Below are positions 38,554-61,779 of a stretch of 64,000 bases of DNA, in pieces. A program made the position numbers and the translations under genes. The stretch covers positions 134,930-198,929 of the forward strand of contig JAZAMN010000008.1 of the NCBI GenBank assembly GCA_036229005.1, given 5' to 3'. Position 1 is the stretch's first letter, and every line of letters begins with the position of its first letter. Under the pieces are notes generated by a model that was given only the letters and a program-made list of their open reading frames with translations, searched no databases and was not told the DNA's origin. Source of the DNA: Myxococcota bacterium (lineage in GTDB: Bacteria > Myxococcota_A > UBA796 > CAJQPC01).

Positions 38554-41500
38554 ATGGGCTACTCCCACGCCTGCGCTATGGATGGCACCGGAGCCCTGAC
38601 CTGCTGGGGGTCCAACAAGAACGGACGTGCAGCGCCTCCAACCACCGCGATGGTCGACCTCTGCGTGGGCGACACCTATCGCGCCAAGCCCGGTGGCGGC
38701 TGGTCTCGGCCAATGACCCACACCAGCCGTCCGAACGTCGATCTCAGCGCACCTGATGTGCGGGTGATGGATCTGGACGGAGACGGGATCCCCGATGCCC
38801 TGCGCCTGGGGGCTTCCGGCGCGACCTTCTTCAAGAACCTCGGCGAGGGCAAGTGGGCTCCTGGCGTCCACGTCATGGGCAGTCCGCCCTACCGGCTGGA
38901 TGACCCCCATGTGCACCTGGCAGGCATCAAGGGAGATGGTTTCCCAGATCTGGTCAAGGTCAGTCAGGGCCGCATCGAGGTCTACCCTGGCCTTGGCAAG
39001 GGCCGCTTCGGCAGCCCCTTCATCATGCAGAACGCACCCAAGTTCGGTGCTGGCTTCAATCCTCGCTACGTGCGCTTCGCAGATCTGACGGGCTCAGGAC
39101 AGGCAGATCTGCTCTACATCGAGCACAACCGTGTGACCGCCTACTTCAACCAAGCGGGACTTGCCTTTGCCGAGGGCGTGGCCCTCGGTCACACGCGCCT
39201 TTCAAGCCAAGGGCACATCGAGCCTGTCGACCTCTATGGAAACGGAGCCTCGGGTCTGCTGGTCACGGACCGCAAGGACCTCTCCGGCACTTGGCGCTAC
39301 CTAGATCTCTTCCCCGACGGCACGCCAGACCTGCTGGAGTCCATCGACAACGGGCTTGGGGCCAGCACCACGATCACCTACGGGAACTCGGCGGCCCACT
39401 GCCTCCGGGACCGGGCTGCCCTGGAGCCCTGGCAGTCCCACATGCCTTTCGTTCAGCGCGTCGTGGACAAGGTAGAGGTTCACGATACCCTCAGCGACCT
39501 GCGCCTCAACACCCGGTACACCTATCACCATGGGGTCTACGACGGCCGGGAGCGTGAGTTCCGAGGCTTTGGCCGGGTGCAGCAGTACGACACCGAGGTC
39601 GACCTGGACCCCGACCATGACTCCAGCACCACCGACAGCAGTACCCTGCTGCAGGCGATGACCAAGAGCTGGTTTCACTGCGGGACAGATCTCAACCTGT
39701 CCGAGGAGTACTACGAAGTCAGCGGCTACGCGGCCCTCGAGCACGTCGACGAGCGTCCCTCCCGCCTGACGGCCCTGCGTGCGCTGCGTGGACTTCCGCT
39801 CCGACAGGAGACCTACACCACTGACGATCTGGACACGCCCTACTCGGTGAGCGAGTCGGTCTACCGAGTCCACGAGCTTGAGGACGGGAGTGTAGGCAAG
39901 CCCTCGGATGCCCCCCTGGCCTACAAGGCGCGGTCCATCTACACCGAGCGTCTGTCCTCGGCCGAGGCGCGGGTGATGGAGACCGAGACGCTCTACGACC
40001 TCGATGACCCTTCTGGCACAGACTACGGCCTGCCCACGAAGGTCACGGAGACCGGCTACGGCAAGGCCTCCAGCGATGGCAGCGACGTGGGCGACCAGAT
40101 GGCCGAGACGCTCACGCGGGTCCGGACCAGCGAGTACCACACGGCCGTCGACTCCACGCCAACGGCCGACTACGACGTCGCCTACGACAGTGGCACGGAA
40201 GAGTTCTACTACTTGGTGGGCTTCGTCAAGAAGACGCAGCTGCAGGACAGCTCCAGCAGCGTGCTGGCCGAAGAGCAGTACTTCTACGATGGGGACGACT
40301 ACGAGGGCTTGGGACACCCCAGCTCTACCAGCAGCGCGGCGGTCGAAAAGGGCCTGCTCAAGTGCAAGCTGGTCCTCGCTATGGACGATGCCCTTCTCAG
40401 TGCGACCTACCCCTCTGGTGAAGGAGACGCTGCGGCCTTCTCTGCCCGAGGCAACTACCTGACCGACGGGACCGACCACTACATCCAGGCAGAGCGCTAC
40501 AGCCACACCGATGAGGGCCTTGTCGCCACGGCCAAGGGGCCTGGCGGTGGCACCGTCACCTTCGAGTACGACAGCACCTACGAGCTCTTCCCCATCAAGG
40601 CCACCGACGCCCTGAGCCACCCAACGGAGGTCTCCCGCGGAGAGCTGTTGTTCCGCGTGGAGTCCTCCCTGGACGCAAACGGCAACACCACCACCTACGG
40701 CTACGATGTTACCGGACTACCCGCATGGATCGCCGTCAAGGGGAAGTTCGACAACACCATCGCCAGCGACTGGGACGGAGACACCGACAGCAGCCCCACC
40801 CAGCAGTTCTCCTACGACTTCACGACATCCCCCATCCAGATCGTTGTGAAGACCCGTCAGGTCCGCGGGGGCGCGACCTTCGATGTCTACCGCTACGTCG
40901 ATGGCATGGGCAGGACGCTGCAAGAGCGGCATACCGCCGAGCCAGATCCAGACACCAGCGTGACCCGCTTCCGGGTGACGGGCTGGGTGGAGACCAACGC
41001 CAAGGGACAGCCCTACCGGGCCTACCAGCCCTACTTCGACTCCAGCTCTGCCTTCTCGATCCCGTCCACGACCGACAAGCCCTTCGTCGAGACCACCTAC
41101 GACCCCCTCGGACGGGCGACCCGGGTGGACTACCCTGACGGGACCTACGAGAGCACCAGTTTTCATCCCTGGTACCAGTCCTTCTACGACCGGAACGACA
41201 ACGCCTCAGCCATCGATGCCGAGGATGAGCGTTACGGCGACTTCTTGGGCCGCTTCAAGGACCACCTGAACACACCAACGGTGACCTACTTCGATGCCTT
41301 CGGGCGGCAGATCGCCGTCTCGGAGGACGTGGGCAAGCAGTCCGAGACTGACAAGAGCTTCCGGATCACCACCTACGAGGTCCCAGCGGGCCAGTTCACG
41401 GGGACCAGCTACGAGCTGCCCCTGCAGCAGGCCCTCAGCGAGCACTACTTTGTGATGCTCCAGGGAAGTGTGAATGTCACGGGACCCGATCCGGCCAACG

Positions 41501-44500
41501 CGAACGCACGCGTGAGCTCGGACCCCCACGGGAACTTCTCCGGCAGCACCGACGCAGACAAGCTCGAGCTGACCCGTGGTGCCTCCAACCAGGGAGACTG
41601 GGTCGGCTCGGTGACCGTCTGGGAGTGCCTTGGAGATGTCGGCGTCTCCGGCTTCCAGCTCATCGACGTTGTCGAGATCTCTGCAGGCACGGCGGCTACC
41701 CAGACCACGCAGTCTGGGAGTGCGAGCTCCAGCGCCTGGACTGACGTGGACCAGGTTGTGATCTATGGCGGCGTCCGCGGGGGTGGGGTGTCTACCTCCG
41801 AGACGGCCAAGGCCCAGTTCGGCTCGACCTGGGCAACTCTGAGTCCCTCCGGCACCGGCTCCAACGTTCTCTGGGAGCGCTACAACGAAGACTCCACCCT
41901 CGAGGCCGCGACCTTCACAGCCTATGTCGTGCAGTGGGGCAGTGAGCACAGCATCCAGCGGGTGGCCATCTCAGGCAACGCGGGTGCAGCGGGCGCAGAC
42001 AGCAGCAGCGCCTACGACACCCAGGCACTCGCGACTGCGGTGGACCGCTCCAAGAGCTGGGTGTGGGCCTCGGGCTACACCCACGGTACGGCTTTGCAGG
42101 ATGGCTTCACAGGGATCAGTGTTGCCCTCGGCGATGGGGTGACCGTCAACGAGAGTGAGTCCAGCGTCTCCGCAGGGGCCGAGAACGCGATCGAGAAGGA
42201 GCTCGTTGTCAGCGTCCACAGTCACCCAGACTTCGACGTGGACTGGCAGTTCAAGGAGGATGGAGACTCCACGGCGACCACCTACACCCACGATGTGCCC
42301 GGCGCCCTGGCCAGTGAGGTCACGAGCACCTCCACAGTCAATGCGACCGCGGGAACGCGGGCCCTGCTCCAGACCCAGACCTCAGGCGGCACGGTCAACG
42401 CCAACTACCAGCGGGTGCTCTGGCGGGCGCGTCACGAAGACCAAGGCGACGGTGTCGTCGACCGCGTCGGAGGCGGCACGGACTGGACGGCCTGGGTGCA
42501 GTCGCTGGACGCCGGTCTGCTCGAGCATGCCGTTGCGCGGCCCATCGCAGAGCCAGACACCGCGCTGCGGGTCACCACCTACCAGCTTGGTGGGACCACC
42601 TTCTCGGGCACCACCTACGACCTGAGCCTCAACGACGACCTGGCCAAGAACTACTTCGTGATGGTCATTGGCGCTGAGGAGCAGTCCTCAGGCGCCCGCG
42701 CAGACGGCTCTGGGGTGCGGGTGAGCGCAGACCCCTTCGGGACTGGAGACCTCTCCAAGAGCTCTGCAGACGACGTGCTGAGCTTCGAGCGCGGCGGGAG
42801 CACAGACCCATGGCATGGCACCATCGTGGTGGTGGAGTGCCTCGCGGACGAGGCCGCCGCTGGCTTCCGACTTCTGGACGTGGTTGAGGCGACCTGCGCT
42901 GGGGGAAGCACTGGGACACCTGCCGAGACCACCTCAGTGACCTCCCGGCAGGCCTGGGAGGATTTGGGCCAGGTCGCGGTCTACGGCGGGCCGCGGGGCG
43001 GCGGCGCATCGGTGGCCTCCGCAGACCACAAGAAGTGGGCTTCGCTCGCAGCACGCATCGTCCCCTCCGGAGACGAGGACATCACCCTCACGCGCCTCTC
43101 TCAGCTCCAAGGCCTGCTTGAGGCGACCTTCACCCTCTACGTGGTGGAGTGGGGCGTTGAGCACAACCTGCAGCGCGTGAGCGTGAGCGGCACCGCCGGC
43201 GGCTCCGGGGCCTCCAGCACCTCGCACTACAACACGGCAACTATCAGCGAGGTCGACCGAGACGGTAGTTGGGTGTGGGCTTCTGGCTACACCGCCTCGG
43301 ACAACATGGACGGAAGCTTCTTCGGTCAGCTCTTCGCGCTGGGCGACGGCGTCAACCAGTCCACCACCGAGACCTCGGTGGCGGTCGGCGACCAGGTTGG
43401 CGGCGTGCAGCGAGAGTTCTCCGTGCTCGTGCACAGCCATCCCTCGCTCGCGGTCGACCATGTCTTCCTCTCTCAGGGGAACAACGTCCCAACCACCCGC
43501 GATGCCACGGTGGACGCGGCGGCCGGGACCGAGACCTACAACACCGGCACCCCCACCAGCACCGACGGGACACGCGTGGGCGTCTGGACCACCTCCAACA
43601 CCACCACCGGCATGTCTGGCTTTGCCAAGGTGGTCTACTTCCCCCGCTTCACCGCCTCCACCACCCTCACAGGCACCCGCGCCGTTGGCAACAAGGAGAC
43701 TGCCAGCTGGGTGCAGTCTGTCGAGACCGATGGCGTGGTCTTCAGGCGCAAACACGTCACCCGGACGGTCTTCGATCTCAAGGACCAACCCATCGAGGTC
43801 TGGGACGCACGGGGGCTGGACGATGCCACCTGGGAGTTCTCCTACGACTACGTCGGACAGCGGATCAAGACCGCACACCTCACGGCCATGGGCACCCGCT
43901 ACGCCCTGGCGGACGCCGCTGGCAACCCCATCTGGTCCAGGGACGCCCGAGGGGTCGAGGTCGACCGGGTCTTCGACACCCTGAACCGCCCGACCACCGT
44001 CACCAGCGACGATGGCACCACCGCCAAGCTGCGGCGGCAGTTCACCTACATCGCCTACTCGGCCACAGACACCGCCTCGATGGCCAAGAACCTCTTCGGC
44101 CGCGTCGAGGAGGCCCGGGACGCCGACGGTCTACGTTTCTTCGAGTATGACTGGCGCGGACTGGTCACCACTGCGAGCCACAAGTTCTGGGACCAGGCGG
44201 ATGGTGCTACCGCGTGGAATAGCGGAAGCCACAGCATGTGGGCCACGGGCTTTGCCTGGGACCCCGCAATCCCCAGTGGGGCGCGCTCGGGGCTTTCGAA
44301 CTTCCTCTCGCTGGCCGACCTCGGTACAAGTGGGACAGATACTGTCCAGATCTCAACGACCTACGATGCCGCTGGACGTCCCACTCAGGTGGACTATCCT
44401 GAGGACATGTCCCTTCGGATGTCCTACAACAAAGCTGGCCTGCTGGAGTCCCAGGAGCTGCAGCGCACCTCCAGCTCTGGTTGGCAGACCATCGTCGAGG

Positions 44501-46470
44501 ACTGCGAGTACAACGCCCGGGGTCAGGTCAGCTACTTCAAGCACGGCAATGGCGTGGAGACCACCCGGGAGTACGACAGCTCCCTTGAGCGCCTGGAGCG
44601 GATCTTCACCGAGCTCACGGGGACGACACCGACGCGCTTCCAAGATCTCCGCTACGGCTATGACCCGGTGGGCAACCCGGTGAAGATCACCGACGCGCTC
44701 CGGCACGACCGCTACCGCTCCAACCAGCTGATCCCCAACAGCCGGAGCTTTTGGTACGATGGGCGCTACCGCCTGACCCGGGCCACAGGTCGGAAGCGCG
44801 CGGTCCTGGACGCCTACGGCGAGGCTGAGGTCCTCAGCAACCCGGATGAGAACGACTACGAGGGCTACGACTACCGCTACACCTACGATCAGGTCGGCAA
44901 CTTCTGGAAGAACCACGAGTATTCCACCAAGAAGCTCTACTACAAGGCGAACCGCCTCGACCTCTTCAACGGAACGGATGAGGGGAACACTGCACCCGGT
45001 TCGGGGAACTGGACCTATGACGCCAATGGCAACACCCTTCACACCCCTCGCCACAAGGAGATGCGGTACACCTTCGACAGCCAGCCCCGTTTCGTTGACA
45101 TGGATGGTGGCGGCGCTGTCCACTACTTCCGACATGCAGACCAGCGAGTGGTGCGCATGGTTCGCAAGGGAACCTCAGGCAGCCAATTCGGGCTCGGCAT
45201 CTACCTTGGGCCCTGGGAGTACCAGGAGAGTGCCACCGAGGGCTGGAGCAAGATCGTCCTTCACTGCGAGGGACACGGACGACACGCGCAGGCTGAGGTG
45301 GTGCATGACGGCACGGACAGCACTAGCGAGGACGTCTTCTTCAACCACGGAGATCACCTCGGGAGCGGTCACGTCCTGACGAAGGACGACGGAACGCTGC
45401 TCAGCCAGGAAGAGTACTTCCCATATGGGAAGGCGAGTGACAGGAGGGATGAGAGGAATCGGTATCGGTTCATTGGGGTGGAGAGGGATGAGGCGACGGG
45501 ACTTTCTGTCGTTGGACCTCGATTCTACGATCAGGCCGCTGGACGATTCCTTCAGGTTGATCCAGTTGAATTCCATGGCGCGTCCCCCTTCTCCTACGCA
45601 GGGAGTAGCCCGATCGCATTGATGGACCGTACTGGCTATGCTCCTGAGTGGGTAGACCGTGCGTTGAATTGGACAAGGACTCTCATTCAAAGAACCTACG
45701 AGTATGTAAAGCCCGCAGAAAAGCCTCAACCCGATCCACTGAAGGCCTCGAGAAACGAAGCTGCATTGGCTGCACTGGAAGGCGAGCCGGCCGAGGTCAT
45801 TGGGATCACACTGATCAAGTCATCGGACGGTAGTCACGACTTTCGAGACTCCCCCGACCTCGGGGCAAACCACAGAAACAGCAGCCCTGGCCCACATAGC
45901 TATGGTGGACGAAACTACTACGGGGTCCAAATTGAGTTCAACCTCTCTGAGGAGTCTTCTTCGAATTCCGTGTACTGGAAGCGGGGCGTCGAAATTCGCG
46001 AATCGACGATTTCATTCAAAGATGCGCCAGGGCAAACTGCCGAAATGGACGTTCTTTCAAAGATGGTTGGCACTCCGACAGTGCAGGGAGTGTCTGGGGA
46101 GAAAGAACTCGTCGTTGATGACAAAGATATGCGCTCATTGCAAGCCTCGACCCTACGGCCAGATGAGAGAACACTCGTAGTCGCAGATTCCGTCGGCGGG
46201 CTGGACTCCGGTTCGGAAGGCAGAATGCTGTTGGACTTTGTTGTTGTTCTGTACACGCTGCCTGATCTGGACGAACCAGACTCGCTTTCCGAGAAGGAAC
46301 AGAGGGACTCACTCGGGGGTAGAGCAATTGGGGAGGTTCGCTACACCATGGAGTACGCGTATGATGGCGGCAAGTGGGTTGGTGAGGGAGTGGTTGAGGG
46401 GTCAGTGGAGGGCTGGATTGTCGACACCGAAACGGGCGAAGTTCGGAGTATTGATGTTGAGGTTAAGTAG
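38554..46470 (+). CDS. giant Tc-toxin BC-fusion/Rhs protein (FG-GAP, TcdB midN, YD repeats, Rhs core, toxin tip); N-terminus chimeric
   Basis: DLDGDG/DLTGSG repeats, YHHGVYDGREREFRGFG, YD repeats, DHLGS..EEYFPYG..ERDEATGL..RF...P....DRTG. Confidence 0.9.
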   Translation: MGYSHACAMDGTGALTCWGSNKNGRAAPPTTAMVDLCVGDTYRAKPGGGWSRPMTHTSRPNVDLSAPDVRVMDLDGDGIPDALRLGASGATFFKNLGEGKWAPGVHVMGSPPYRLDDPHVHLAGIKGDGFPDLVKVSQGRIEVYPGLGKGRFGSPFIMQNAPKFGAGFNPRYVRFADLTGSGQADLLYIEHNRVTAYFNQAGLAFAEGVALGHTRLSSQGHIEPVDLYGNGASGLLVTDRKDLSGTWRYLDLFPDGTPDLLESIDNGLGASTTITYGNSAAHCLRDRAALEPWQSHMPFVQRVVDKVEVHDTLSDLRLNTRYTYHHGVYDGREREFRGFGRVQQYDTEVDLDPDHDSSTTDSSTLLQAMTKSWFHCGTDLNLSEEYYEVSGYAALEHVDERPSRLTALRALRGLPLRQETYTTDDLDTPYSVSESVYRVHELEDGSVGKPSDAPLAYKARSIYTERLSSAEARVMETETLYDLDDPSGTDYGLPTKVTETGYGKASSDGSDVGDQMAETLTRVRTSEYHTAVDSTPTADYDVAYDSGTEEFYYLVGFVKKTQLQDSSSSVLAEEQYFYDGDDYEGLGHPSSTSSAAVEKGLLKCKLVLAMDDALLSATYPSGEGDAAAFSARGNYLTDGTDHYIQAERYSHTDEGLVATAKGPGGGTVTFEYDSTYELFPIKATDALSHPTEVSRGELLFRVESSLDANGNTTTYGYDVTGLPAWIAVKGKFDNTIASDWDGDTDSSPTQQFSYDFTTSPIQIVVKTRQVRGGATFDVYRYVDGMGRTLQERHTAEPDPDTSVTRFRVTGWVETNAKGQPYRAYQPYFDSSSAFSIPSTTDKPFVETTYDPLGRATRVDYPDGTYESTSFHPWYQSFYDRNDNASAIDAEDERYGDFLGRFKDHLNTPTVTYFDAFGRQIAVSEDVGKQSETDKSFRITTYEVPAGQFTGTSYELPLQQALSEHYFVMLQGSVNVTGPDPANANARVSSDPHGNFSGSTDADKLELTRGASNQGDWVGSVTVWECLGDVGVSGFQLIDVVEISAGTAATQTTQSGSASSSAWTDVDQVVIYGGVRGGGVSTSETAKAQFGSTWATLSPSGTGSNVLWERYNEDSTLEAATFTAYVVQWGSEHSIQRVAISGNAGAAGADSSSAYDTQALATAVDRSKSWVWASGYTHGTALQDGFTGISVALGDGVTVNESESSVSAGAENAIEKELVVSVHSHPDFDVDWQFKEDGDSTATTYTHDVPGALASEVTSTSTVNATAGTRALLQTQTSGGTVNANYQRVLWRARHEDQGDGVVDRVGGGTDWTAWVQSLDAGLLEHAVARPIAEPDTALRVTTYQLGGTTFSGTTYDLSLNDDLAKNYFVMVIGAEEQSSGARADGSGVRVSADPFGTGDLSKSSADDVLSFERGGSTDPWHGTIVVVECLADEAAAGFRLLDVVEATCAGGSTGTPAETTSVTSRQAWEDLGQVAVYGGPRGGGASVASADHKKWASLAARIVPSGDEDITLTRLSQLQGLLEATFTLYVVEWGVEHNLQRVSVSGTAGGSGASSTSHYNTATISEVDRDGSWVWASGYTASDNMDGSFFGQLFALGDGVNQSTTETSVAVGDQVGGVQREFSVLVHSHPSLAVDHVFLSQGNNVPTTRDATVDAAAGTETYNTGTPTSTDGTRVGVWTTSNTTTGMSGFAKVVYFPRFTASTTLTGTRAVGNKETASWVQSVETDGVVFRRKHVTRTVFDLKDQPIEVWDARGLDDATWEFSYDYVGQRIKTAHLTAMGTRYALADAAGNPIWSRDARGVEVDRVFDTLNRPTTVTSDDGTTAKLRRQFTYIAYSATDTASMAKNLFGRVEEARDADGLRFFEYDWRGLVTTASHKFWDQADGATAWNSGSHSMWATGFAWDPAIPSGARSGLSNFLSLADLGTSGTDTVQISTTYDAAGRPTQVDYPEDMSLRMSYNKAGLLESQELQRTSSSGWQTIVEDCEYNARGQVSYFKHGNGVETTREYDSSLERLERIFTELTGTTPTRFQDLRYGYDPVGNPVKITDALRHDRYRSNQLIPNSRSFWYDGRYRLTRATGRKRAVLDAYGEAEVLSNPDENDYEGYDYRYTYDQVGNFWKNHEYSTKKLYYKANRLDLFNGTDEGNTAPGSGNWTYDANGNTLHTPRHKEMRYTFDSQPRFVDMDGGGAVHYFRHADQRVVRMVRKGTSGSQFGLGIYLGPWEYQESATEGWSKIVLHCEGHGRHAQAEVVHDGTDSTSEDVFFNHGDHLGSGHVLTKDDGTLLSQEEYFPYGKASDRRDERNRYRFIGVERDEATGLSVVGPRFYDQAAGRFLQVDPVEFHGASPFSYAGSSPIALMDRTGYAPEWVDRALNWTRTLIQRTYEYVKPAEKPQPDPLKASRNEAALAALEGEPAEVIGITLIKSSDGSHDFRDSPDLGANHRNSSPGPHSYGGRNYYGVQIEFNLSEESSSNSVYWKRGVEIRESTISFKDAPGQTAEMDVLSKMVGTPTVQGVSGEKELVVDDKDMRSLQASTLRPDERTLVVADSVGGLDSGSEGRMLLDFVVVLYTLPDLDEPDSLSEKEQRDSLGGRAIGEVRYTMEYAYDGGKWVGEGVVEGSVEGWIVDTETGEVRSIDVEVK
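41359..43730 (+). repeat. internal tandem duplication, 2 x ~400 aa
   Basis: RITTYE..FTGTSYEL / RVTTYQ..FSGTTYDL ... AWVQS / SWVQS. Confidence 0.85.
45412..45494 (+). repeat. Rhs core repeat copy 1 (palindrome 45417-45432)
   Basis: GAGTACTTCCCATATGGGAAGGCGAGTGAC core. Confidence 0.95.
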
Positions 46471-46483
46471 AAATTCCCGGACA

Positions 46484-47143
46484 GTGAGGCCTCACCTTTT
46501 CGCTTTCCTGTGCCTATTCGGTACGCAGGCGTGGGCTACCGACCAAACTTGGTCGGGGCGCGGCGTTCAGTACTCAACCGGTTTCGGCGGTCCCGATCGT
46601 GCGATAGTCCTGGATACGAGAACAGGGGCACTGCGCTCGATCCCAATCGAGCAGATGGACCAGATTTCCGGACAGCGAGTGACCTACCCATGGGAGCATT
46701 GTCTTGTCGCCGAGCAATCGGATGATGTGCTATCTCCGATGGATGTGTCGGCGTGCAGAGAAAACCCGGTTACGCCCTTGGCCCATTTGTGGACGGAAGA
46801 AGAACTCCTTTTCACCGTGAATACTGCTGACGCAAACGGGCCCAGGCGGCCACTGAAACGGGAATCGGAGCTGTTCGTAATCGTCCAGTACAACCACCTC
46901 CCAGAAGTGCTACAGGCTGCTGCCATCCGGTCAGGAGACCTTGCCGTGCTCGATATCCCAAAGTGTCGGCTATTCCAGACTGGCTTGTGCCTTCGCCAAC
47001 GACGTTTCGAAAGTCATTGGGTAGTCGTACTGGAGGGTGCGCCCCTGCTTGCCGACCTCCCATTGGCCGAATTCGTCCTATCAACGCATTCCGCCCTCTA
47101 CAGCACTGGAGTCACGATGAGCAGGGACTACATTCTTCACTGA
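46484..47143 (+). CDS. putative secreted immunity protein for main Rhs tip
   Basis: Directly downstream of toxin; signal peptide MRPHLFAFLCLFGTQAWA. Confidence 0.6.
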   Translation: MRPHLFAFLCLFGTQAWATDQTWSGRGVQYSTGFGGPDRAIVLDTRTGALRSIPIEQMDQISGQRVTYPWEHCLVAEQSDDVLSPMDVSACRENPVTPLAHLWTEEELLFTVNTADANGPRRPLKRESELFVIVQYNHLPEVLQAAAIRSGDLAVLDIPKCRLFQTGLCLRQRRFESHWVVVLEGAPLLADLPLAEFVLSTHSALYSTGVTMSRDYILH

Positions 47144-47248
47144 CCAGGTTGATGGTTTCAAGGCGACGTCCTGCCTCAGTTGAACCGCTGACCGGCCAGA
47201 GGGCTCCCAGAGACTGGAGCCGGCTGTGCGGCCGCTTGGCGCTAGTCA

Positions 47249-47959
47249 CTACAACTGCTCTGGTCGCCTGACCAACCTTAGCCCCCAGAGCGGAGTTGTC
47301 GCGTAGTGGGATGAGGCAGGCTCGAAGGATATGCTCCTGATCTGGACGTCTATCGGACCGTTGTCGACCTCTACGTCTGTCAAGTAGTTCCCTCCGGCAA
47401 GCCCGTAGCCGCGGAGGTCAGAGTAGACCAACTCCGCAACGTTTCCGAATACGTGACACAGCTGATGCCCTGTGCAGCCGGCGTGGGCTGGAAGCAATTT
47501 CGTAAGGGACAGCCTCTTGCCATCCATGTACCACTCGAGATTTGGAAGCTGCGAGCTACTGTAGCCGTTTGCCTCACGTTGTATGCAGAGCGACTCTTCC
47601 CAGGTCGGAAGCGACCAGGGGCCGAATTCGACCCCGTCCATCATGTCGACAGCGGGCGCTGCAGATGCGAACTGAGTTGCTACCTCCTTCAAGTCTCTCG
47701 GTTGGAGACAAGTCACCGGGTAGGTGTCTTGCTCGGTCGCAACAGGGTTCATGCATGTCGTGTAGTTTGGGGCGTCGAGGCGGACTCCCGCCGCCTTTGC
47801 TTGTCTTGTAGTCAGCTCTGTTTGTTGGACCAATATCAACTGCCCCCTGCACGGGACTGCGACTGAACCCTCCTTCTCAGGGTTCTGATTCAGATGCATC
47901 TCTGGGATCCGCGTCGAGGGGGTGGCACAGGCCAGTGACAGAAGCCAAAAGGGGATCAT
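47249..47959 (-). CDS. putative immunity lipoprotein, SUMF1/FGE-sulfatase-like fold
   Basis: ATGA-coupled to toxin; LSLAC lipobox; TELT, YPVT, LPTWEE, GNVAE, GGNY, GLRLVR. Confidence 0.7.
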   Translation of the reverse strand: MIPFWLLSLACATPSTRIPEMHLNQNPEKEGSVAVPCRGQLILVQQTELTTRQAKAAGVRLDAPNYTTCMNPVATEQDTYPVTCLQPRDLKEVATQFASAAPAVDMMDGVEFGPWSLPTWEESLCIQREANGYSSSQLPNLEWYMDGKRLSLTKLLPAHAGCTGHQLCHVFGNVAELVYSDLRGYGLAGGNYLTDVEVDNGPIDVQIRSISFEPASSHYATTPLWGLRLVRRPEQL

Positions 47960-49068
47960 GGCTGTCCTTGCGTGTTCGTCTGCTTGGTTTGCTGGAGGGC
48001 ATTCCATGCCGAAGTGACTGACTGGACGGCTTCCGCATCACCCCTGAGGTATGCGTCCAGCAGCTGATCCTCAGTGATAGCGCCAGACTCGACCAGCTGT
48101 GTAACAGCCGCCATCTCCTCAGGGTATCCAGGACCTCCAACCACGAACGTTCCATTCTCTCTTGTCCAGCTGGTCTTGCCATCTAGGACCATATTGGTGA
48201 TATAGTCGGTCGCGCCCTCACGGAGAGCCCGTTCCGCTGCTTCGTGGAATGCTGGTGCTGTAGCCGCATGGAGGTACTCATGGGTTAGGACCCACGGGTT
48301 CTCAATGTTGTCACTGGCTACCGTGATGCGGTGCAGTTCGCCAACATAGTGGCCGCCGACTGCGAGGAGACTCTTGGTGTATTCTGCCGCTAGCTGATCG
48401 GTTCTCCAGGCGATGAACTCGGGCCTGGTTAGCGATACCTCCTTCGTCTCCTTGTAGGTACCTTCAAACGGAATGGGCACCAGTCTTGTTTCAGTTCGTG
48501 TGAACGTGGCGATCTCTTCATCCGACATGGGGGCTGCGATCGCTTCGGCGGCCAAGCGTGCTTCGTTCTCTAGCTGTTGCACTCGGGTCGCTGGGTCTGC
48601 AGACCAGACGCGAACCTCTGCGGAGAATGTTCGCTTCGCATCAATTCTCGACGCGACTTTCGGGTTCGAAAGGAGGAGTTCCTTCGACATCGCCATGTTC
48701 TCCTCCAGCGAAGCAGGCGCGGTAGGAGGTGGCTTGTTCTGTGGCTTTACAGTTAGGCCTGGTTCTTCAGTCTGGTGTCCGGACCAGTCAACGTAGCGAC
48801 CGGGGCTTGACGCAGCATATCCGTAGGCGGACGAGTCAAGCGCAACCAAGCGAGGTTCCCCCTGGAGGAAGCGGCTTGTTCCGGTATCGTAGGTCCTAGG
48901 CCCGGCCATCAAAAGCCCACTGGTTTCATCTCGTTCGACCCCAATGTACCGATACCGATTCCTCTCATCCCTCCGGTCACTCGCCTTCCCATATGGGAAG
49001 TACTCTCCTCCCCTGGGGAGACCATTGTTCCTTCGCGCCCAGCGCGCGTCGGTGGAGTTCATCAGCAT
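47956..49068 (-). CDS. orphan Rhs core plus HExxH metallopeptidase toxin tip
   Basis: EYFPYG..P....DWSG; THEYLH...LREGATD. Confidence 0.8.
   Translation of the reverse strand: MLMNSTDARWARRNNGLPRGGEYFPYGKASDRRDERNRYRYIGVERDETSGLLMAGPRTYDTGTSRFLQGEPRLVALDSSAYGYAASSPGRYVDWSGHQTEEPGLTVKPQNKPPPTAPASLEENMAMSKELLLSNPKVASRIDAKRTFSAEVRVWSADPATRVQQLENEARLAAEAIAAPMSDEEIATFTRTETRLVPIPFEGTYKETKEVSLTRPEFIAWRTDQLAAEYTKSLLAVGGHYVGELHRITVASDNIENPWVLTHEYLHAATAPAFHEAAERALREGATDYITNMVLDGKTSWTRENGTFVVGGPGYPEEMAAVTQLVESGAITEDQLLDAYLRGDAEAVQSVTSAWNALQQTKQTNTQGQP
48938..49005 (-). repeat. Rhs core repeat copy 2 (palindrome 48985-49000)
   Basis: 68 bp, 2 mismatches to copy 1, inverted. Confidence 0.95.
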
Positions 49069-49131
49069 GGGGCCAGAATAGACCATCTCCTGCCTGGCTT
49101 CGCTGACCATTCTACGAATGGGCCTGCTGGG

Positions 49132-49998
49132 CTACTCCTCGGACGCGGCCAGGAATCCAGTCCTGGCCAACTCCGCTGCAGCCTCCACGGCCTCGGTCAA
49201 GGCTGGCGTCTGGAGGCCGGACTTGCGGAGAAAGCCCTTCCACTGCGCCTGCTTCGACCTGTCCTGGGCGAACTCGGAGCTCAGCCCAATGGGCAACTCC
49301 GATGGAACCGGGGTCCCTCGGCGCGAGAAGGTGTGGCGAATGGCCATGCCAAGGCCCTCGCCGGTGACGATACCCAACTGATGGGCCGCCCAGAGGTCGT
49401 AGTAGTCCTTCATCCTGCTGTTGGCCAGCCCCAGCGTCACCACGGCGTGGAGCTTCTCGGCCAATGTGGCCTCTGCCGGGTAGCCCAACAACCTGGGTGC
49501 TCCCAGGTCCAGCAGCTGCGGGTACTCGAACCACTCTGGCTCGGGAACCACAGCGTCTCCGAACCCAACGTCGACCTGCATCCTCAGCTTCATGCCGGCG
49601 AGATCGGCAACGAAAGACACCCGCACCCCGACGTAGGCGGTTTCCACCCGGATCTCAGCGCCCTCAATGGACTGGGCGTCAAACTGGACACCGTCATCCG
49701 CTTCCACATCGAGTACGTCCCCGATGCGTTGGCTGACCGCCGACACGGAGTTCTGTCCCCAGCCCAGCAGGTCGATATCCCTGGTGACTCGGCCGTACTC
49801 CCCCGCCCAGAGGAGCGTCGTCAGCCCGCCCTTGAGGACGAATCGGTCTACATGCTGCGAGTGGGCAAGGCGGAAGAGGAACCTCTCCATTGCGTAGAGG
49901 GTCGCCAACTCCTGAAAGACGCGTCCCTCTGTCCGTGCGCGATTGAGCAAACGACGCCGGACCGAAGCGGCCATGTTCGTGACTCTCCGCTCTGTCAT
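49132..49998 (-). CDS. abiEii: AbiEii/AbiGii nucleotidyltransferase toxin (type IV TA)
   Basis: FVLKGG, RVTRDIDL, AEKLHA, NSRMKDYYDL. Confidence 0.92.
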   Translation of the reverse strand: MTERRVTNMAASVRRRLLNRARTEGRVFQELATLYAMERFLFRLAHSQHVDRFVLKGGLTTLLWAGEYGRVTRDIDLLGWGQNSVSAVSQRIGDVLDVEADDGVQFDAQSIEGAEIRVETAYVGVRVSFVADLAGMKLRMQVDVGFGDAVVPEPEWFEYPQLLDLGAPRLLGYPAEATLAEKLHAVVTLGLANSRMKDYYDLWAAHQLGIVTGEGLGMAIRHTFSRRGTPVPSELPIGLSSEFAQDRSKQAQWKGFLRKSGLQTPALTEAVEAAAELARTGFLAASEE

Positions 49999-50609
49999 GC
50001 CAGCGCCTCCAGGTAGGGTCGCATCACGGAGCGGACCCCGCAAACATCGCCCATCTCATCCAGCTCGGCGGCCGTCGAACTCCGAGACTCCAGGGCCATC
50101 TTGAGGGACGCGATGGCTGCCTCCAGACCGACGCGGCTCCGGAACTTGAAGGCGTCCGCGACAGACTTGGCCGGTGTCGTCAGTCTGACCTCGACCCCGT
50201 CGATGTCGCGGGTCTCCACCCCGGCCTGATAGCTCGCCGGCGAGAAGTGGTAGACCTCAACTGGCGGATAGTTCAGCTTGGCAGGATGAGAGCCGCGCGG
50301 GAGCGCCAGGTGTACGGCCCTGGGGATCTCCAGGGTGAGACCATGCAGGCTCAGTGCGGTGGTGAGACAGAGAACCGCCTTGGGCATGCGGCTGACGACG
50401 GCGATCAGATCCGGCTCCGAGAGCGGTAGCTCCGCGACGCGGTAGACCCCGCGTGTCAGTACGTCGATCCAACCTGCGTCCCTCGCTGCGTAGAGGTCCC
50501 GGGGGTGGACCCCCGCTGCGAGGATGTCTCGCGTACGCGCAGTCCCCCCCAGACGCAGGAGTACATCCACGACGGGCGAGACTGAGGACTTGGATAGATT
50601 GCTCGACAC
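49995..50609 (-). CDS. abiEi: AbiEi antitoxin (type IV TA)
   Basis: RGVYR, CLTTALSLHGLT, PAKSVADAFKFR; coupled to abiEii. Confidence 0.9.
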   Translation of the reverse strand: MSSNLSKSSVSPVVDVLLRLGGTARTRDILAAGVHPRDLYAARDAGWIDVLTRGVYRVAELPLSEPDLIAVVSRMPKAVLCLTTALSLHGLTLEIPRAVHLALPRGSHPAKLNYPPVEVYHFSPASYQAGVETRDIDGVEVRLTTPAKSVADAFKFRSRVGLEAAIASLKMALESRSSTAAELDEMGDVCGVRSVMRPYLEALA

Positions 50610-50750
50610 CTACACCTTTCTATAGCAGATTCTATCCAAGGGACGCGCTGATGGCTCAAGGCAAGTCCAGGCGGCAGGAAGCCAACACCGCTCAACCACC
50701 TGAAATCAGGCAGATGCGCTCCAGTCAGTGCTCCAACCACGGAGCACGAC

Positions 50751-51617
50751 ATGACCGATTTCGCCTCGATCCTCAACGCCTGGCTGGCCCACACCAAAGA
50801 CCGAGTGGACCTCGCCGAAGGGACCAAGCGCAACTACGCCCGGGTCCTTCGCACCCTGCTTCACTGGTGCGGAGACCGGACCTTCGCGGAGCTCTCCCTG
50901 CCCGACTTCGTCCGCTCTCGTAGGCGGGCTGGCCTGGCAGACCGGACCATCCACCTGGAGCTCAGCATCCTGCGGATCGTCGTCCGTTGGGCAGAGCAGG
51001 AGAGGCTGATGGTCCTGGCCACGCCGCTGCGGCTCCCTCGACTTCGCATCGATCCTCGCCAGTTCAGGGCCAACCACACCACTCCCACACCGGAGGAAGC
51101 AGGCCTGGCCATCGCCTCCATGCCGCACGACGACTGGCGGCTCGCCGCCTCGCTGCTCGCACGAACTGGCGCACGCGTTGGCGAGGTGGTGTCCCTGCGG
51201 TCCCGGGACCTGGACGAGCATCGAGGGACCTTGGTCCTTGGAGCTGCGGTCGGGAACTCCAAGACCGGCTCTCGCACCTTCCCCTTGGACCCCCATTCAC
51301 TGAGGCTCCTGCGTGGACGGGGAGCCCGCGGTCGGACGCCTTTGCTGGACTTCGGGGGCGTCCGGAACCCCAAGCACGGCATCCGTCAGCGCCTGCAGAA
51401 GGCCTGCCTGAAGGCCGGCGTCCAGGTCTTCACACCGCACGGGCTTCGTCGCATGGTTGTGGGCAGGCTCATTCGGGCGTGCGTCGACCCTGGAACGGCG
51501 GCCGCGCTGACCGGCCACACCGTGACGGTGATGCTGCGCTTCTACCAGGTGGTCACCGAGCGGGATCGCCGTGCCGCAACGATAGCCGCGCAGCTTGGTG
51601 AGCTGACGGGCGAGTAG
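50751..51617 (+). CDS. second tyrosine recombinase (288 aa, no arm-binding domain)
   Basis: TGARVGE (R), SKTG (K), HGLRR, TGH, RFY (Y) all intact. Confidence 0.9.
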   Translation: MTDFASILNAWLAHTKDRVDLAEGTKRNYARVLRTLLHWCGDRTFAELSLPDFVRSRRRAGLADRTIHLELSILRIVVRWAEQERLMVLATPLRLPRLRIDPRQFRANHTTPTPEEAGLAIASMPHDDWRLAASLLARTGARVGEVVSLRSRDLDEHRGTLVLGAAVGNSKTGSRTFPLDPHSLRLLRGRGARGRTPLLDFGGVRNPKHGIRQRLQKACLKAGVQVFTPHGLRRMVVGRLIRACVDPGTAAALTGHTVTVMLRFYQVVTERDRRAATIAAQLGELTGE

Positions 51618-51654
51618 GAACCCCGAGGCCACGGGCATGGTCTACACTAGGCCC

Positions 51655-52713
51655 GTGGTCGCACTCCCCGCCAGTTCCGACAACCCTGGCTCGGTCCAAG
51701 CCCGAGAGGAGTACTTCCCATATGGGAAGGCGAGTGACCGGAGGGATGAGCGGAATCGGTATCGGTACATTGGGGTGGAGAGGGATGAGGCTACCGGTCA
51801 ATATGTTGCTGGGCCGCGGACATATGATGCAGAGACTGGAAGGTTTCTTCAGGGAGAACCCATCATATCTGAGTCCATTCTCCAGTCTCCGTATTCATAC
51901 GCGGGTCTATCTCCAGTGGCCTATCTTGACTCCTCTGGCCGAAAGCGGGAGAGGGCGACGCCGGAGGTTTCTAGCGAGCCAATCGAGTTCGACCCCTTAG
52001 GCACGCCGATTACTCCTAGCGGTACCTCACCACAACAAGGCTTCACGATGAAGCGAGCGGAAGGTATGGAAGCGATTCAGTCTCGGCTGGAAACAGATAA
52101 GCATGGGGGAACTGACTGGGCTGGATTGCTAATCCTGAACCAATACATGCTCGGAGAGGGGAAAGATGTGGTTATCCACAATTCAGAACGCTGGACGGAC
52201 TACCTGACGACTGCACCGGTATCCCCGAAGGTAAACAAGGCAGGGGACATCTTTTACTGGAAACTTCAGACGGTCACCGAGCAGGCCCTCAAGGACGTGA
52301 CAGAGTATCTCGTGGAGAATCACCAGGACTCGGTTGGCGAGACCCTCTACGTGAAGTTCGCGATCCCCCGAGCCAAGATTGCACAGAGAGGAAGGGGGAC
52401 GGGCTTCTATCTCCTCAATCAGCCAGATGATACGATTGGCGGCTTCTTTGCTGTCGGTACGGCCGTAATCTCGGAGACGGAGACGGGCTTTTCGGTTGAG
52501 TACGATCTTACGTTTGTGTGGCAAGATCTCATCAACGACAATCCGAAGTATCGCTTCGACAAGTGGTGGGCGCCCATTACGCGCGCATTCGGAGCCAAGA
52601 ACTACGGCCTTCGCATATCTTGGGATGCGCAACAGACAGTCTCTGTGAGCTACTCAAGTGAGGCACAGATCGCAACGGAAGTATCAGGTGGATGGCCAGC
52701 CTCAGATGAATAG
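51655..52713 (+). CDS. orphan Rhs core plus toxin tip (colicin-M-like by eye); alternative ATG at 51637
   Basis: EEYFPYG..P....DSSG, then unique tip. Confidence 0.8.
   Translation: MVALPASSDNPGSVQAREEYFPYGKASDRRDERNRYRYIGVERDEATGQYVAGPRTYDAETGRFLQGEPIISESILQSPYSYAGLSPVAYLDSSGRKRERATPEVSSEPIEFDPLGTPITPSGTSPQQGFTMKRAEGMEAIQSRLETDKHGGTDWAGLLILNQYMLGEGKDVVIHNSERWTDYLTTAPVSPKVNKAGDIFYWKLQTVTEQALKDVTEYLVENHQDSVGETLYVKFAIPRAKIAQRGRGTGFYLLNQPDDTIGGFFAVGTAVISETETGFSVEYDLTFVWQDLINDNPKYRFDKWWAPITRAFGAKNYGLRISWDAQQTVSVSYSSEAQIATEVSGGWPASDE
51709..51791 (+). repeat. Rhs core repeat copy 3 (palindrome 51714-51729)
   Basis: 83 bp, 3 mismatches to copy 1. Confidence 0.95.
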
Positions 52714-53134
52714 TTACGTGCTGTTCATATGGATGGCTGCTTGCCATCCATCGGCAAGCAACCATCCAGCAACTCCGACGACCCTCCGAGAGTGCTCTGG
52801 AGCGGACAGCATGGAGCTCAAGGCGGTTCGGAGGGTCTATTCGTCTGCTTCACTATCGTGTTGGGAACCCTACTTCTCGGACCTTCCGATGCAACGCACT
52901 GGTACCAGTCTGTACTTCAGGGAGAGCTATTCTGGATGCCCAGGTGAGGAGATGGATGAGTCTGGTGTCCGGACACTGGGGTACTGGGTTGGTACTGTGT
53001 TCATCTTCCGAAACGGAGTTCCCGTCTGCCAGGTTGACGTAAACTACTCCCCCGCCCCGTACTCGCTGAGCGCGTTGCCGGGAGCGTTCAGCGCAGGCCT
53101 CATGGCCGAGGTGAATTCAACCCTCAGAGAGTAG
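52706..53134 (+). CDS. putative immunity lipoprotein
   Basis: Overlaps toxin stop; MNSYVLFIWMAAC lipobox. Confidence 0.65.
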   Translation: MNSYVLFIWMAACHPSASNHPATPTTLRECSGADSMELKAVRRVYSSASLSCWEPYFSDLPMQRTGTSLYFRESYSGCPGEEMDESGVRTLGYWVGTVFIFRNGVPVCQVDVNYSPAPYSLSALPGAFSAGLMAEVNSTLRE

Positions 53135-53189
53135 GCTCTCTGTCGATGGAACACTGCCTGCTCAGCTAGGCGGAGTAGTGTACCCATTG

Positions 53190-53442
53190 GAATCCCTGCG
53201 ACGGGCCGGGCTAGGTTTGCGGGCTCCGAGGGTGGTGCAGTCACCGCCGCGACGTGGTTCTCCTTGATCGGCAGCTGCATGGTCAACGCCATCGATCCCT
53301 GGCTGTACCTGAGCGACGTCTTGCCGCAGCTGAACCGCTGGCCGGCCAGACGGGTCTTGGAGTTGGAGCCAGCTGCGTGGCGGGCCAGGAGGCTAACCCG
53401 GCAGGGGTGAAGTCCAGGGGGTGGGGTTCGCCGGAGGGATAC
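53190..53442 (+). mobile_element. IS66-family remnant (TnpC C-terminus plus right end)
   Basis: FAGSEGGAVTAATWFSLIGSC..NAIDPWLYLSDVL...ELEPAAW; end GTTCGCCGGAGGGATAC. Confidence 0.75.
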
Positions 53443-53638
53443 CGGGAGAGAGCACAGCCCGTCATCCAGCTGCGCTGCATCGACGTCAACGGCCAGTGGG
53501 AGACCTTCGTGAGCTGGGTCCTCAAGCGAATGCAGACAGAGACCCGGCAGCAGGGCCGAAGGGCCCGACTGCAGACACAATCACCGGCAAAGCTGCCCTA
53601 TCAAAGGAAGGTGGCGTAACGGAGGCCGATCTGCACCC
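53443..53638 (+). mobile_element. ISKra4-like transposase C-terminal remnant plus end
   Basis: RERAQPVIQLRCIDVNGQWETF; end GATCTGCACCC. Confidence 0.55.
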
Positions 53639-53645
53639 TACTGGT

Positions 53646-54383
53646 TCAGCGTGAGCCTGACTCTCGATGGACACTACTGTGTCGATGCAATCGGCCCTTT
53701 TTCGGAACTGCGATCCCAAGGATTCTGTCATAAACATCGTCAGGTGCAGGCCCAAGCCGAGATAGGCGGCCAAAATGAAACAGCCGCGCTGGCAGACAAT
53801 ACACCCCATTCTTATCGACAAAGCTTCCAAACGGCAGCCAAAGGACGACCGCCCGAAGTTCCTGAGCCTTGTGTAGCACGACGTCCCCAGCGCTCCCCTT
53901 GGGAGCTGGAAGCCCCCCAAGCGACTCCCACTCAACCTCGTTGTCTCCACCCTCTTCCATTGAGAGATAACGTTCCACAACCTGATCACCATGCGCATGA
54001 AGATAGCCAAACGAATGCCCAGCCGTATCCCCCGCACTTACGCAGAAAGACTCCAGCCCCTCTACAACCGGCCAGTCCACACCAAAAACCCTGCTGTTGA
54101 TGCGGCCAAACAATGAGTCTGGGATGACTTGGGTCCAAGCGCTTCCCTTCAACTGCAGGAAGAGAATCCGATGGTAGCTGCTTGGTGGGTAGTTCGCCCA
54201 AGACTCTTGGACCAAATGACCACCGTGCTCAGAAATGGTCCTGTCAACCAACTCGTCGGCTGAAGTTCGAACCAGCACCGCTTCCCAATTCGCCTGTGGG
54301 TAGTGACAGTACCCGAAGTCAGAGAATCCGACCATGTTGTCAGAAATCCTCTTCCAGAAGTCAGACATACCACTCTCCATCAT
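53646..54383 (-). CDS. putative cytoplasmic immunity protein
   Basis: Directly downstream of nuclease tip; no signal peptide. Confidence 0.6.
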   Translation of the reverse strand: MMESGMSDFWKRISDNMVGFSDFGYCHYPQANWEAVLVRTSADELVDRTISEHGGHLVQESWANYPPSSYHRILFLQLKGSAWTQVIPDSLFGRINSRVFGVDWPVVEGLESFCVSAGDTAGHSFGYLHAHGDQVVERYLSMEEGGDNEVEWESLGGLPAPKGSAGDVVLHKAQELRAVVLWLPFGSFVDKNGVYCLPARLFHFGRLSRLGPAPDDVYDRILGIAVPKKGRLHRHSSVHRESGSR

Positions 54384-54413
54384 TGTTCAACCATCCTATA
54401 ATACCCATCGCTG

Positions 54414-55484
54414 CTACCCCCCCGGCACCAAGACCCAATCGCCTGCCTCTGTGGCCAGACCGGTCTCAAACTCTGGATTCAACGAGAGCGGCGCATCCGA
54501 CTCTAGCAGCTCTGCCCTGCCGACCCTCACGTATGTGTCCCCTCCATACTCCGCGTACTCAAGCTTGGCGTGGTAGACGGCGACTCCAGCCTCATTGAAT
54601 TCCTGTACCAACGCAGGTGAGATAGAAACATCGGATGTGGTTATGTAGATGATTGATGCATGAGCAAGACCCATCGAGTCTTGAAACCCGGTCTCTTCCG
54701 GATGGTCCGTAATGTACTCGAGGTAACCGGCTGCTTGACCCGAATCTGCCGCCATGGTTACGACATGTTCACTGTCTGCCATGCCAGAGCCACGTGCCTT
54801 CACCTCCACAAGTATCCCATACTCATAGATCTTCGACTCAAAGTCATCACCTGGGACAGGAACAGGGATAAAGCCAACCCATTTGATGTCGATCGTCCCG
54901 CGAGCAACTATCGTACTCCGCCAAAAGTCCGGACGAACCGAGTGAACCCCCCATCTGCTTCCCCGGTTTGGAGTGGGGAGCGGGCCGTAGAATCGCTCCA
55001 AGAAGCGAGCATGGTCTGTTGACTCTCCGACGATCGCCTCCGCGAGGTAGCCCGCTTGTTGCTTCACATTCCGACGACGAATACGGCCCACCCAACCGTG
55101 TTCAATCGCAAGGCTTCGCAAGGTGTCGGTATCCAGCTCTTTTGCATCCTGCTCAAGCTTTGCCAGGGCCCCCGGACTGTCCTCAGGCTCCCAGCCTGAG
55201 CTGTCCAGCTGTCGCAGCGGGTTCGTCGGATATCCAAAGGCTGCTCGAACGCCGTAGTGGTCGACTTCAAACAGAATCGGATCACCCTGGAGAAAGCGAC
55301 CTGTCACTGTGTCGTAGGCTCTTGGGCCGGTCATGGAGAGGGCCGTCAACTTGTCCCTTTCCACCCCAATATACCGATACCGATTCCTCTCATCCCTCCG
55401 GTCACTCGCCTTCCCATATGGGAAGTACTCTCCTCGGACTCGAACCGAGCCGGGGTTCTCGGAATTGGCGGGGAGTGCGACCAC
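54414..55484 (-). CDS. orphan Rhs core plus PD-(D/E)xK (REase-fold) nuclease tip; alternative ATG at 55502
   Basis: EYFPYG..P....DSSG; GYLAE, VRPDF, VEVKA, Q...Y. Confidence 0.8.
   Translation of the reverse strand: MVALPANSENPGSVRVRGEYFPYGKASDRRDERNRYRYIGVERDKLTALSMTGPRAYDTVTGRFLQGDPILFEVDHYGVRAAFGYPTNPLRQLDSSGWEPEDSPGALAKLEQDAKELDTDTLRSLAIEHGWVGRIRRRNVKQQAGYLAEAIVGESTDHARFLERFYGPLPTPNRGSRWGVHSVRPDFWRSTIVARGTIDIKWVGFIPVPVPGDDFESKIYEYGILVEVKARGSGMADSEHVVTMAADSGQAAGYLEYITDHPEETGFQDSMGLAHASIIYITTSDVSISPALVQEFNEAGVAVYHAKLEYAEYGGDTYVRVGRAELLESDAPLSLNPEFETGLATEAGDWVLVPGG
55354..55430 (-). repeat. Rhs core repeat copy 4 (palindrome 55410-55425)
   Basis: Identical 30-bp core, inverted. Confidence 0.95.
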
Positions 55485-55521
55485 GGGCCCAGTGTAGACC
55501 ATGCCCGTGGCCTCGGGGTTC

Positions 55522-55982
55522 CTACTCGCCCGTCAGCAAACCAAGCTGTGCAGCGATTGTTGCGGCATGGCGATCCCGCTCAGTGACCACCTGGTAGAAG
55601 CGCAGCATCACCGTCACGGTGTGGCCAGTCAGCGCGGCCGCCGTTCCAGGGTCGACGCACACCCGAGTGAGCCTGCCCGCAACCATGCGACGAAGCCCGT
55701 GCGGTGTGAAGACCGTCCCGGGCCTCCGACGCGACCGAAGAGGTTCTTGGCCATCGAGGCGGTGTCTGTGGCCGAGTAGGCGATGTAGGTGAACTGCCTC
55801 CGCAGCTTGGCGGTGGTTGCATCGTCGCTGGTGATGGTGGTTGGGCGGTTCAGGGTGTCGAAGACCCGGTCGACCTCGACCTCTCGGGTGTCTCTGGACC
55901 AGATCGGGTTGCCAGCGGCGTCCTCCAGGGCGCAACGGGTGTCCATGGCCGTGAGGTGTGCGGTCTTGATCTGCTGTCCGAC
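55522..55982 (-). pseudogene. chimeric remnant: Rhs body fragment fused to recombinase 3' end
   Basis: 55715-55982 is an inverted copy of 43852-44121; 55522-55714 is an inverted copy of 51425-51617. Confidence 0.9.
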
Positions 55983-56002
55983 TTAGGGTCGTAGCCGGGA
56001 TC

Positions 56003-60479: not shown

Positions 60480-60497
60480 AGCTCACCTTCCTCGAGC

Positions 60498-61767: not shown

Positions 61768-61779
61768 CCTTCGGTTGGT

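Follow-up and report, generated by a model that had tools for sequence, protein, structure and literature searches.

A 64,000-nucleotide stretch of contig JAZAMN010000008.1 (GCA_036229005.1, Myxococcota bacterium), hereafter the window, to whose positions all coordinates without a contig name refer, carries a locus in which the gene of a 288-amino-acid (aa) tyrosine recombinase is surrounded by alternative C-terminal ends, or tips, of an Rhs toxin. The locus probably belongs to a site-specific cassette system for the tips of Tc-B/C-type (SpvB-RHS) Rhs proteins, which integrates and excises cassettes at direct sites, can flip them at inverted ones, and is partly decayed here. There is about an even chance that the dedicated recombinase family goes further and makes Tc-type Rhs genes work as a programmable 'integron-shufflon' for toxins, in which warhead-plus-immunity cassettes are loaded, reordered and flipped at one Rhs-core codon, both within a clone and between strains. 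The window holds an invertible-looking, partly decayed example of a recombinase-linked tip cassette system that is apparently undescribed.

In the proposed mechanism, a clade of recombinases of about 288 aa would act on a short site within the opening codons of the Rhs-associated core (Y/x-E-E-Y), and a cassette would consist of this site, the core, the tip and a partner gene, without other body sequence. Recombination between a cassette site and the body site would bring the incoming tip onto the body, with the old tip shunted downstream behind the recombinase-side arm, and the enzyme may join any left arm to any core-tip. It would cut at the site, and circles and inversions would form: direct sites would lead to excision and re-integration, as in integron- or tvr-like arrays, and inverted sites to shufflon-like flips. 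The 6297 bp between 45412 and 51708 could represent one integrated unit, bounded by the direct cores 1 and 3, in which the recombinase and an AbiE toxin-antitoxin pair are combined with two convergent tips. The inverted core 2 inside this unit would let tip 1 and tip 2 flip, and the AbiE pair may stabilise the excisable unit.

Linkage of the recombinase clade to Rhs cores

Recombinase loci were collected from metagenomes (71) and genomes (40), together with relatives, and a quick tree of 53 entries was built after duplicates, partial genes and nearly all matches below 30% identity had been left out. The window recombinase falls in a clade of 19 entries with a Shimodaira-Hasegawa-like approximate likelihood-ratio (SH-aLRT) support of 99, and 18 of these adjoin an Rhs core or its short site, whereas none of the 34 entries outside the clade does at the distances covered (2.2 kb for a core, 350 bp for the site motif). 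In thirteen members an Rhs core is no more than 2.2 kb away (12 of these cores are headless, that is, free of the preceding body, and one retains a 180-aa body fragment). In a further one, a 90-bp contig overlap connects the recombinase with a headless core; another is 2.7 kb away from a core of its own array, three adjoin a bare site, and one, on a 2-kb contig, has neither. The clade is present in 9 of the 182 genomes of the class, spread over four families. The first-pass annotation of this stretch had named recombinase homologs beside inverted Rhs cores in other genomes as a check on its proposal, and the clade proved to be tied to headless cores in many unrelated records. Judged from these neighbourhoods, the link between recombinase and Rhs core is not a matter of chance, and a recombinase dedicated to these cores is supported. 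The motif matches next to two further recombinases, downstream of the one in L203 and beside the one in L205, were not counted as sites. More distant relatives of the recombinase, 35-45% identical (L128, L132, L136 and other loci of G005, G012 and G020), occur as multi-copy tandem pairs unlinked to Rhs.

The breakpoint and the recombination site

A profile that includes 40 body residues ahead of the core yielded 101 core matches in 38 of the 154 genomes of the order. Headless starts at the Y-E-E-Y codons were present in 8 of the 9 clade-bearing genomes with cores (19 of 36 matches, one of them at a contig edge), the exception being G002, which has broken copies only. Among the genomes without the clade they were found in 1 of 29 (1 of 65 matches), namely G101, which is congeneric with a carrier and in which no clade gene was found. 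In two control genomes that have the window's Rhs subfamily and no clade member (G004 and G024), orphan cores retain 250-470 aa of body. The breakpoint is fixed at one codon position, and all three orphan cassettes of the window begin at one codon as well, without a body shoulder and without the long, variable core fragments of classical orphans.

Headless cores of the larger subclade read GCGGG(N3)TA-TGAGGAR-TACCACCC, a dyad around a 7-bp spacer, and the dyad arms match at a mean of 3.8 of 8 positions in 20 headless cores versus 1.5 of 8 in 13 body-type cores. Sites of tyrosine recombinases usually have this form. In L124 the recombinase lies between two perfect inverted copies of a 27-bp sequence, one of them with no Rhs behind it. 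Bare site copies adjoin the recombinase in L054 (~3600), L055 (~570), L122 (~10950) and L124 (~4310) and are followed by non-Rhs DNA, which suggests that they may be secondary targets or a symmetric donor site. A 16-bp palindrome within the window core was rejected as the site, being partly forced by the P-Y-G codons and not general in relatives.

Linkage and breakpoint both bear on the possibility that the cassettes are conventional orphan Rhs modules of a decaying island, which homologous recombination exchanges, with the recombinase as an unrelated neighbour. The island is full of fragments, the ~80 bp of near identity between core copies might allow a degree of homologous recombination, and the distant recombinase relatives are multi-copy and unlinked to Rhs. 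Classical orphans, however, carry variable long core fragments (PMC2935791; 522 bp in PMC3967940), and so do G004 and G024. Together with the codon-exact breakpoint, the linkage of 18/19 against 0/34 largely refutes this explanation, which is highly improbable.

Core sites and recombinase in the window

The 30-bp core has exactly four matches in the whole window, at 45412(+), 49005(-), 51709(+) and 55430(-), each with 0 mismatches where 3 were allowed, and the number expected by chance is 0 (100 shuffles). Between copies, 74-77 of the first 80 bases are identical and leftward agreement ends 0-5 bases from the core, so that the pattern of a conserved core and right arm beside a variable left arm is present. 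All four cores translate EYFPYG and lead in frame into core-plus-tip frames of 335-353 aa, which all exceed the TIGR03696 (Rhs-associated core) cut-off and carry tips of 250-270 aa behind the Rhs-associated core. Each tip is followed by a co-oriented partner gene at short distance (an overlap of 4 or 8 bp, or a gap of ~13 or 30 bp), and the four partner genes are putative immunity genes by position and gene coupling. Cores 1 and 3, like cores 2 and 4, are direct repeats and could therefore support excision, and inverted sites bound segments with alternative in-frame C-termini; this geometry would permit inversions that place any tip beside the body.

The recombinase itself (50751..51617, +) is a clade member with Pfam Phage_integrase and SAM-like domains, and its frame is open, with R142, K171, H230, R233, H256 and Y265 all kept. 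Because it ends 23 residues beyond the catalytic Tyr265, it lacks the extra C-terminal domain of the Rci type. A search of 72,556 plasmid records at E 1e-5 gave no match to it, and it is not of the IntI family (TIGR02249, 23.8 bits against a cut-off of 265; NF011946, 29.3 against 435). The description given in the first-pass annotation, with four identical cores in alternating orientation, tips in frame with them, two segments of convergent tip and partner pairs and an intact recombinase in the central segment, is thus correct, the immunity role of the partners being read from their position.

Arrangements in relatives and in a close strain

The best intact example of the family is G041 (with the same layout in G100), where a full body and six co-oriented headless cassettes form an all-direct array of seven cores. 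This locus (L126 and L161, G041:C228, ~600-24000) contains a TcA-like gene, a full-length Rhs gene, partner genes and two antisense recombinases that are 90% identical. In G042 (also G069), four headless cassettes with shared downstream repeats lie at four distant places (L162-L165), and two of them retain only ~10 bp of body-type left flank. Sites that face outward on both sides of the recombinase were found in the window, L056, L124 and strain X4, and convergent cassette pairs in the window, G122 and strain X4. Because the layouts differ in this way among relatives, 'shufflon' is too narrow a label. Decayed versions were seen in G002, of the same genus, at L017 (G002:C259, 100-1010), at the end of L042 (G002:C266) and at L016 (~11380-13170); they include headless cores and a recombinase with an internal deletion, after which the same spacer motif as in the window runs into non-Rhs DNA, and one recombinase is split by an unrelated AbiE pair.

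Strain X4, from a separate study (depth ~1300, ~95% identity), keeps the body, the recombinase and cassette 2, and its contigs break at the cores. Cassette 2, ~98% identical there, is paired with a different convergent cassette. Tips 1, 3 and 4 are without cover in X4, which is not proof of their absence, and the AbiE pair has no cover either, a contig bridging the region with 1593 other letters. Since X4 has another cassette pairing and 1593 bases in place of the AbiE pair, cassette content turns over between close strains.

The layouts also bear on the proposal of the first-pass annotation, namely an R64-like Rhs shufflon that works by inversion only and is active on a working toxin here. 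Alternating cores, convergent tip pairs, which recur in G122 and strain X4, and variable left arms with conserved right arms, as in the sfx sites (PMC11852207), are consistent with it. However, the all-direct G041 array and the dispersed G042 cassettes occur under the same clade, the recombinase is without a C-terminal extension and without a plasmid match at E 1e-5, the body is truncated, cassette 4 stands at the remnant of a second locus, and no inverted junction was seen in the contigs. The proposal therefore appears quite improbable as a whole: the dedicated recombinase and a geometry that would allow inversion to any tip stand, but the restriction to inversion does not, given the G041 and G042 layouts, the missing Rci-type domain and the missing inverted junction.

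A selfish integrative element could also produce some of these arrangements. Such an element would use the conserved Rhs-core codons as its attachment site and carry a replacement gene end, so that the host gene survives; tips would change only upon a new insertion, without regulated or frequent switching, and the inverted layout would be a by-product. The recombinase directly adjoins its site, like phage-type integrases, occurrence is patchy (9/182 class genomes), bare sites are joined to non-Rhs DNA (L054, L055, L057/L124, L122), the four G042 cassettes are dispersed far from the matched body, and toxin-antitoxin cargo is found along with many broken copies (G002 and the window). On the other hand, arrays with as many as six cassettes, recombinase-free or mixed, have kept their frames intact and their partner genes coupled, and the recurring two outward sites around the recombinase (window, X4, L056, L124) are not the product of a single simple insertion. 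This explanation is unlikely.

The following findings weigh against a site-specific cassette system. The absence of a core within 2.2 kb or of a site motif within 350 bp in all 34 entries outside the clade includes many entries with short flanks, and the genomes are related and their counts not independent, so that counts alone were used and the Fisher tests that had been computed were given no weight. The sites of the window's own subclade are without the TA-7bp-TA dyad of the larger subclade: their identity starts from GAGTAC, purines dominate the left arms, and copies vary in the 7 bases that precede TAC. Logan contigs, not reads, from 4 of the 7 listed runs were mapped to window 38400-56400, and no clear inverted junction or circle was seen in the contigs of these 4 runs; a core-to-core joint between 48946 and 55372 in X3 was rejected as an inversion, since a single base supports it. 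Neither the four tips nor the four partners gave an informative family match in Pfam or NCBIfam, and 3 of 21 related tips scanned had a family match, namely a WHH nuclease, an EndoU-like and a JAB-like tip, the last two below the cut-off. Tip 2 was not found on longer proteins in what was, by its own caveat, a weak search, and tips 2-4 were not found on full-length bodies among 47 body relatives. The contigs break at the cores, as they would also at static repeats, and a joint between 44107 and 51425 in X1 was discarded as a rearrangement, as it equals the remnant at 55431-55994.

Comparison with known systems

In its workings the system resembles shufflons and the tvr locus, without belonging to either. 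As in the R64 shufflon (Rci, sfx and PilV C-termini; PMC11852207 and PMC3414803), a tyrosine recombinase is combined with silent C-terminal cassettes in convergent pairs, the shared sequence begins at the junction, and left arms are variable while right arms are conserved. Here, however, the cargo consists of toxin tips and partner genes, the recombinase lies inside the array, a plasmid match is lacking at E 1e-5, all-direct and dispersed arrays occur in the clade, and the enzyme has no extra C-terminal domain, which in Rci is tied to inversion-only activity according to PMC11852207. The tvr locus of Streptococcus pneumoniae (SpnIV) likewise has domain-coding cassettes around a central toxin-antitoxin pair and a tyrosine recombinase, and its cassettes are shuffled by excision and re-integration at direct repeats (PMC6265443); it differs in its hsdS recognition-domain cargo, its phd-doc type toxin-antitoxin pair and its restriction to direct repeats, whereas the present system has Rhs core and tip cargo, an AbiE pair, sites in both orientations and putative circles.

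Displacement of orphan Rhs C-termini also yields a full-length rhs gene followed by detached core, tip and sometimes immunity sequences, with old tips pushed downstream, and circular intermediates were proposed for it (PMC2935791 and PMC3967940); in the present case, by contrast, fragments share one starting codon and are linked to a dedicated recombinase. Integrons (IntI, attC) resemble the G041 layout in that each cassette of the array has one site and the productive place is the first, but here in-frame fusion makes the cassettes part of a resident protein, the enzyme is far below the IntI cut-offs, and the spacers fold weakly. The Bacteroidales rAID and Xer-linked polyimmunity loci (10.1101/2025.05.03.651265, PMC3482391) have a tyrosine recombinase beside arrays of conflict genes as well, yet their arrays consist of whole orphan immunity genes and not of tips joined in frame to a body.

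How Rhs and other polymorphic toxins gain new C-terminal tips and yet keep the immunity genes of earlier ones has no settled answer. In the prevailing model, exchange is slow and proceeds by homologous recombination via circles, and the authors of this model noted that no integrase was known with Rhs (PMC2935791); a Vibrio study likewise saw no sign that an integrase takes part in effector-immunity insertion (PMC5361080). Full-text literature searches, largely outside subscription papers, revealed no site-specific recombinase that acts on Rhs or Tc tips, and supplements (e.g. of PMC9881135 and PMC3482391) could add such loci. The main text of PMC9881135, on gene-altering inversions, contains neither 'rhs' nor 'toxin', and none of the recombinase terms is present in 10.1101/2025.05.08.652813. 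The locus and its relatives offer a candidate enzyme and a candidate 27-bp site, and the question therefore becomes testable with a plain recombination reporter. If the integron-shufflon reading holds true, such a system would be the first site-specific mechanism for the exchange of polymorphic-toxin tips, and its recombinase would be the integrase so far lacking for the circular tip intermediates that were put forward in 2009. The locus and its relatives would also add toxins to the adhesins, phage fibres and restriction enzymes whose domains are swapped site-specifically, and provide a small recombinase with a coding-sequence target.

The Rhs body and the remnant of a second locus

The Rhs body (38554..45411, +), delimited by Pfam matches and alignment to relatives, is of the Tc B/C type (TcdB_midN/midC, FG-GAP, RHS repeats) and 5'-truncated. 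TcdB_midN/midC, RHS repeats and the Rhs-associated core were all detected, the midC match lying just under its cut-off. Homology to full-length relatives begins near 38676, with an RCC1-like fragment ahead of it, and the SpvB N-terminal domain found in 43 of 47 body relatives is absent. Alignment to the closest relative begins at residue 389 of that protein, and ~390 N-terminal residues of the SpvB type are missing from the window body. Because the body is without this N-terminal domain, toxin output is probably crippled in this genome, and what the genome holds is probably a damaged version of a functional system. The contig of strain X4 extends 11 kb further upstream of 38676. At 37790-38677, a 218-aa frame without family match and the RCC1-like piece abut the truncated Rhs gene, and in X4 the RCC1-like piece runs into other sequence on both sides.

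Upstream of core 4, the recombinase 3' end and spacer (51425-51708) recur at 55431..55714 (-) with 93% identity (21 differences in 284 bp), and ~280 bp of the body (43842-44122) recur at 55714..55994 (-), also with 93% identity; the two pieces join at a short shared sequence, and both are inverted. By this comparison, 55431..55714 is the remnant of a second recombinase gene and 55714..55994 that of a second, inverted body, and cassette 4 is therefore what is left of another body-recombinase-cassette locus in the opposite orientation. The earlier idea of a single Rhs body consequently needs amendment: tip 1 is fused to the body, but this body is truncated and the remnant of a second one lies beside cassette 4. 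Full-length related bodies come after TcA-like genes in 4 of 4 loci scanned, and the only TcA match of the genome lies on another contig than the window locus. A separate, apparently complete Tc-like locus of the genome (G000:C30:79782 to ~94000, -, partly L030) has a TcA-like gene (VRP1, ABC_toxin_N, neuraminidase-like and TcB-binding domains) and, behind it, an Rhs gene from a different subfamily.

Tips and partner genes

Core site 1 (45412..45441, +), an exact core match, lies on the body, and the remaining Rhs-associated core with tip 1 (45442..46470, +; no family match) is now fused to it. Partner gene 1 (46484..47143, +), a putative immunity gene by position, has a hydrophobic N-terminus. 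Headless cassettes 2, 3 and 4 were each recognised by the core match and TIGR03696. Cassette 2 (47956..49005, -) is made of core site 2 (48976-49005) and tip 2, which has an HEYLH motif that we take to be metallopeptidase-like, and an ATGA overlap joins the tip 2 stop to partner gene 2 (47249..47959, -), a putative immunity gene with a lipoprotein-like N-terminus. Cassette 3 (51709..52713, +) comprises core site 3 (51709-51738) and tip 3, whose stop is overlapped by the likewise putative, lipoprotein-like partner gene 3 (52706..53134, +). Cassette 4 (54414..55430, -) contains core site 4 (55401-55430) and tip 4, with a PD...EVK pattern that is presumably nuclease-like, and is followed by partner gene 4 (53646..54383, -), also of putative immunity function. 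Short transposase-like debris between partners 3 and 4 (53200..53620, +), recognised from its translation, is presumed to be IS66-like; one frame was scanned and gave no informative Pfam match. A -10-like motif 60-75 bp ahead of headless cores was dropped, as a promoter scan placed no site there.

Look-alikes of tip 3 are found in DUF6402 and colicin-M-domain clusters (Atlas, low recognition, a lead only), and tip 3 is 22.6% identical to a cassette tip of G041. The Atlas search was blank for tip 4, for which only weak relatives were found. The WHH nuclease cassette of a relative carries an SMI1/KNR4 partner.

Spacer, AbiE pair and surrounding island

The recombinase-side arm, or spacer, that leads into core 3 (51618..51708, +) is duplicated ahead of core 4, and a related motif comes after the recombinase remnant in G002. 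Single-strand folding of three arms gave z values of -2.1, -0.6 and -1.6, that is, weak folds. The type IV toxin-antitoxin pair (49132..50609, -; Pfam PF13338 and PF08843) consists of the AbiEi antitoxin (49995-50609) and the AbiEii toxin (49132 to ~49998), and sits together with the recombinase between direct cores 1 and 3.

The whole locus lies in a 32-kb island at tRNA-Pro(cgg) (31205..63222), bounded by direct repeats at 31205-31257 and 63168-63222. The island integrase (32461-33624) is 29% identical to the cassette recombinase, and this identity and its own attachment (att) repeats rule it out as the acting enzyme. A phage origin of the recombinase was likewise rejected, viral contigs having given distant integrases only (best E 4e-16, 29% identity). 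Further along the island are a 1311-aa frame without a Pfam match (56003-59938, -) and an apparently cut-short PriCT-1/D5_N primase-helicase piece (60498-61478, -), and two or three degenerate tRNA-end-like copies (63198-63463) stand beside the right att repeat.

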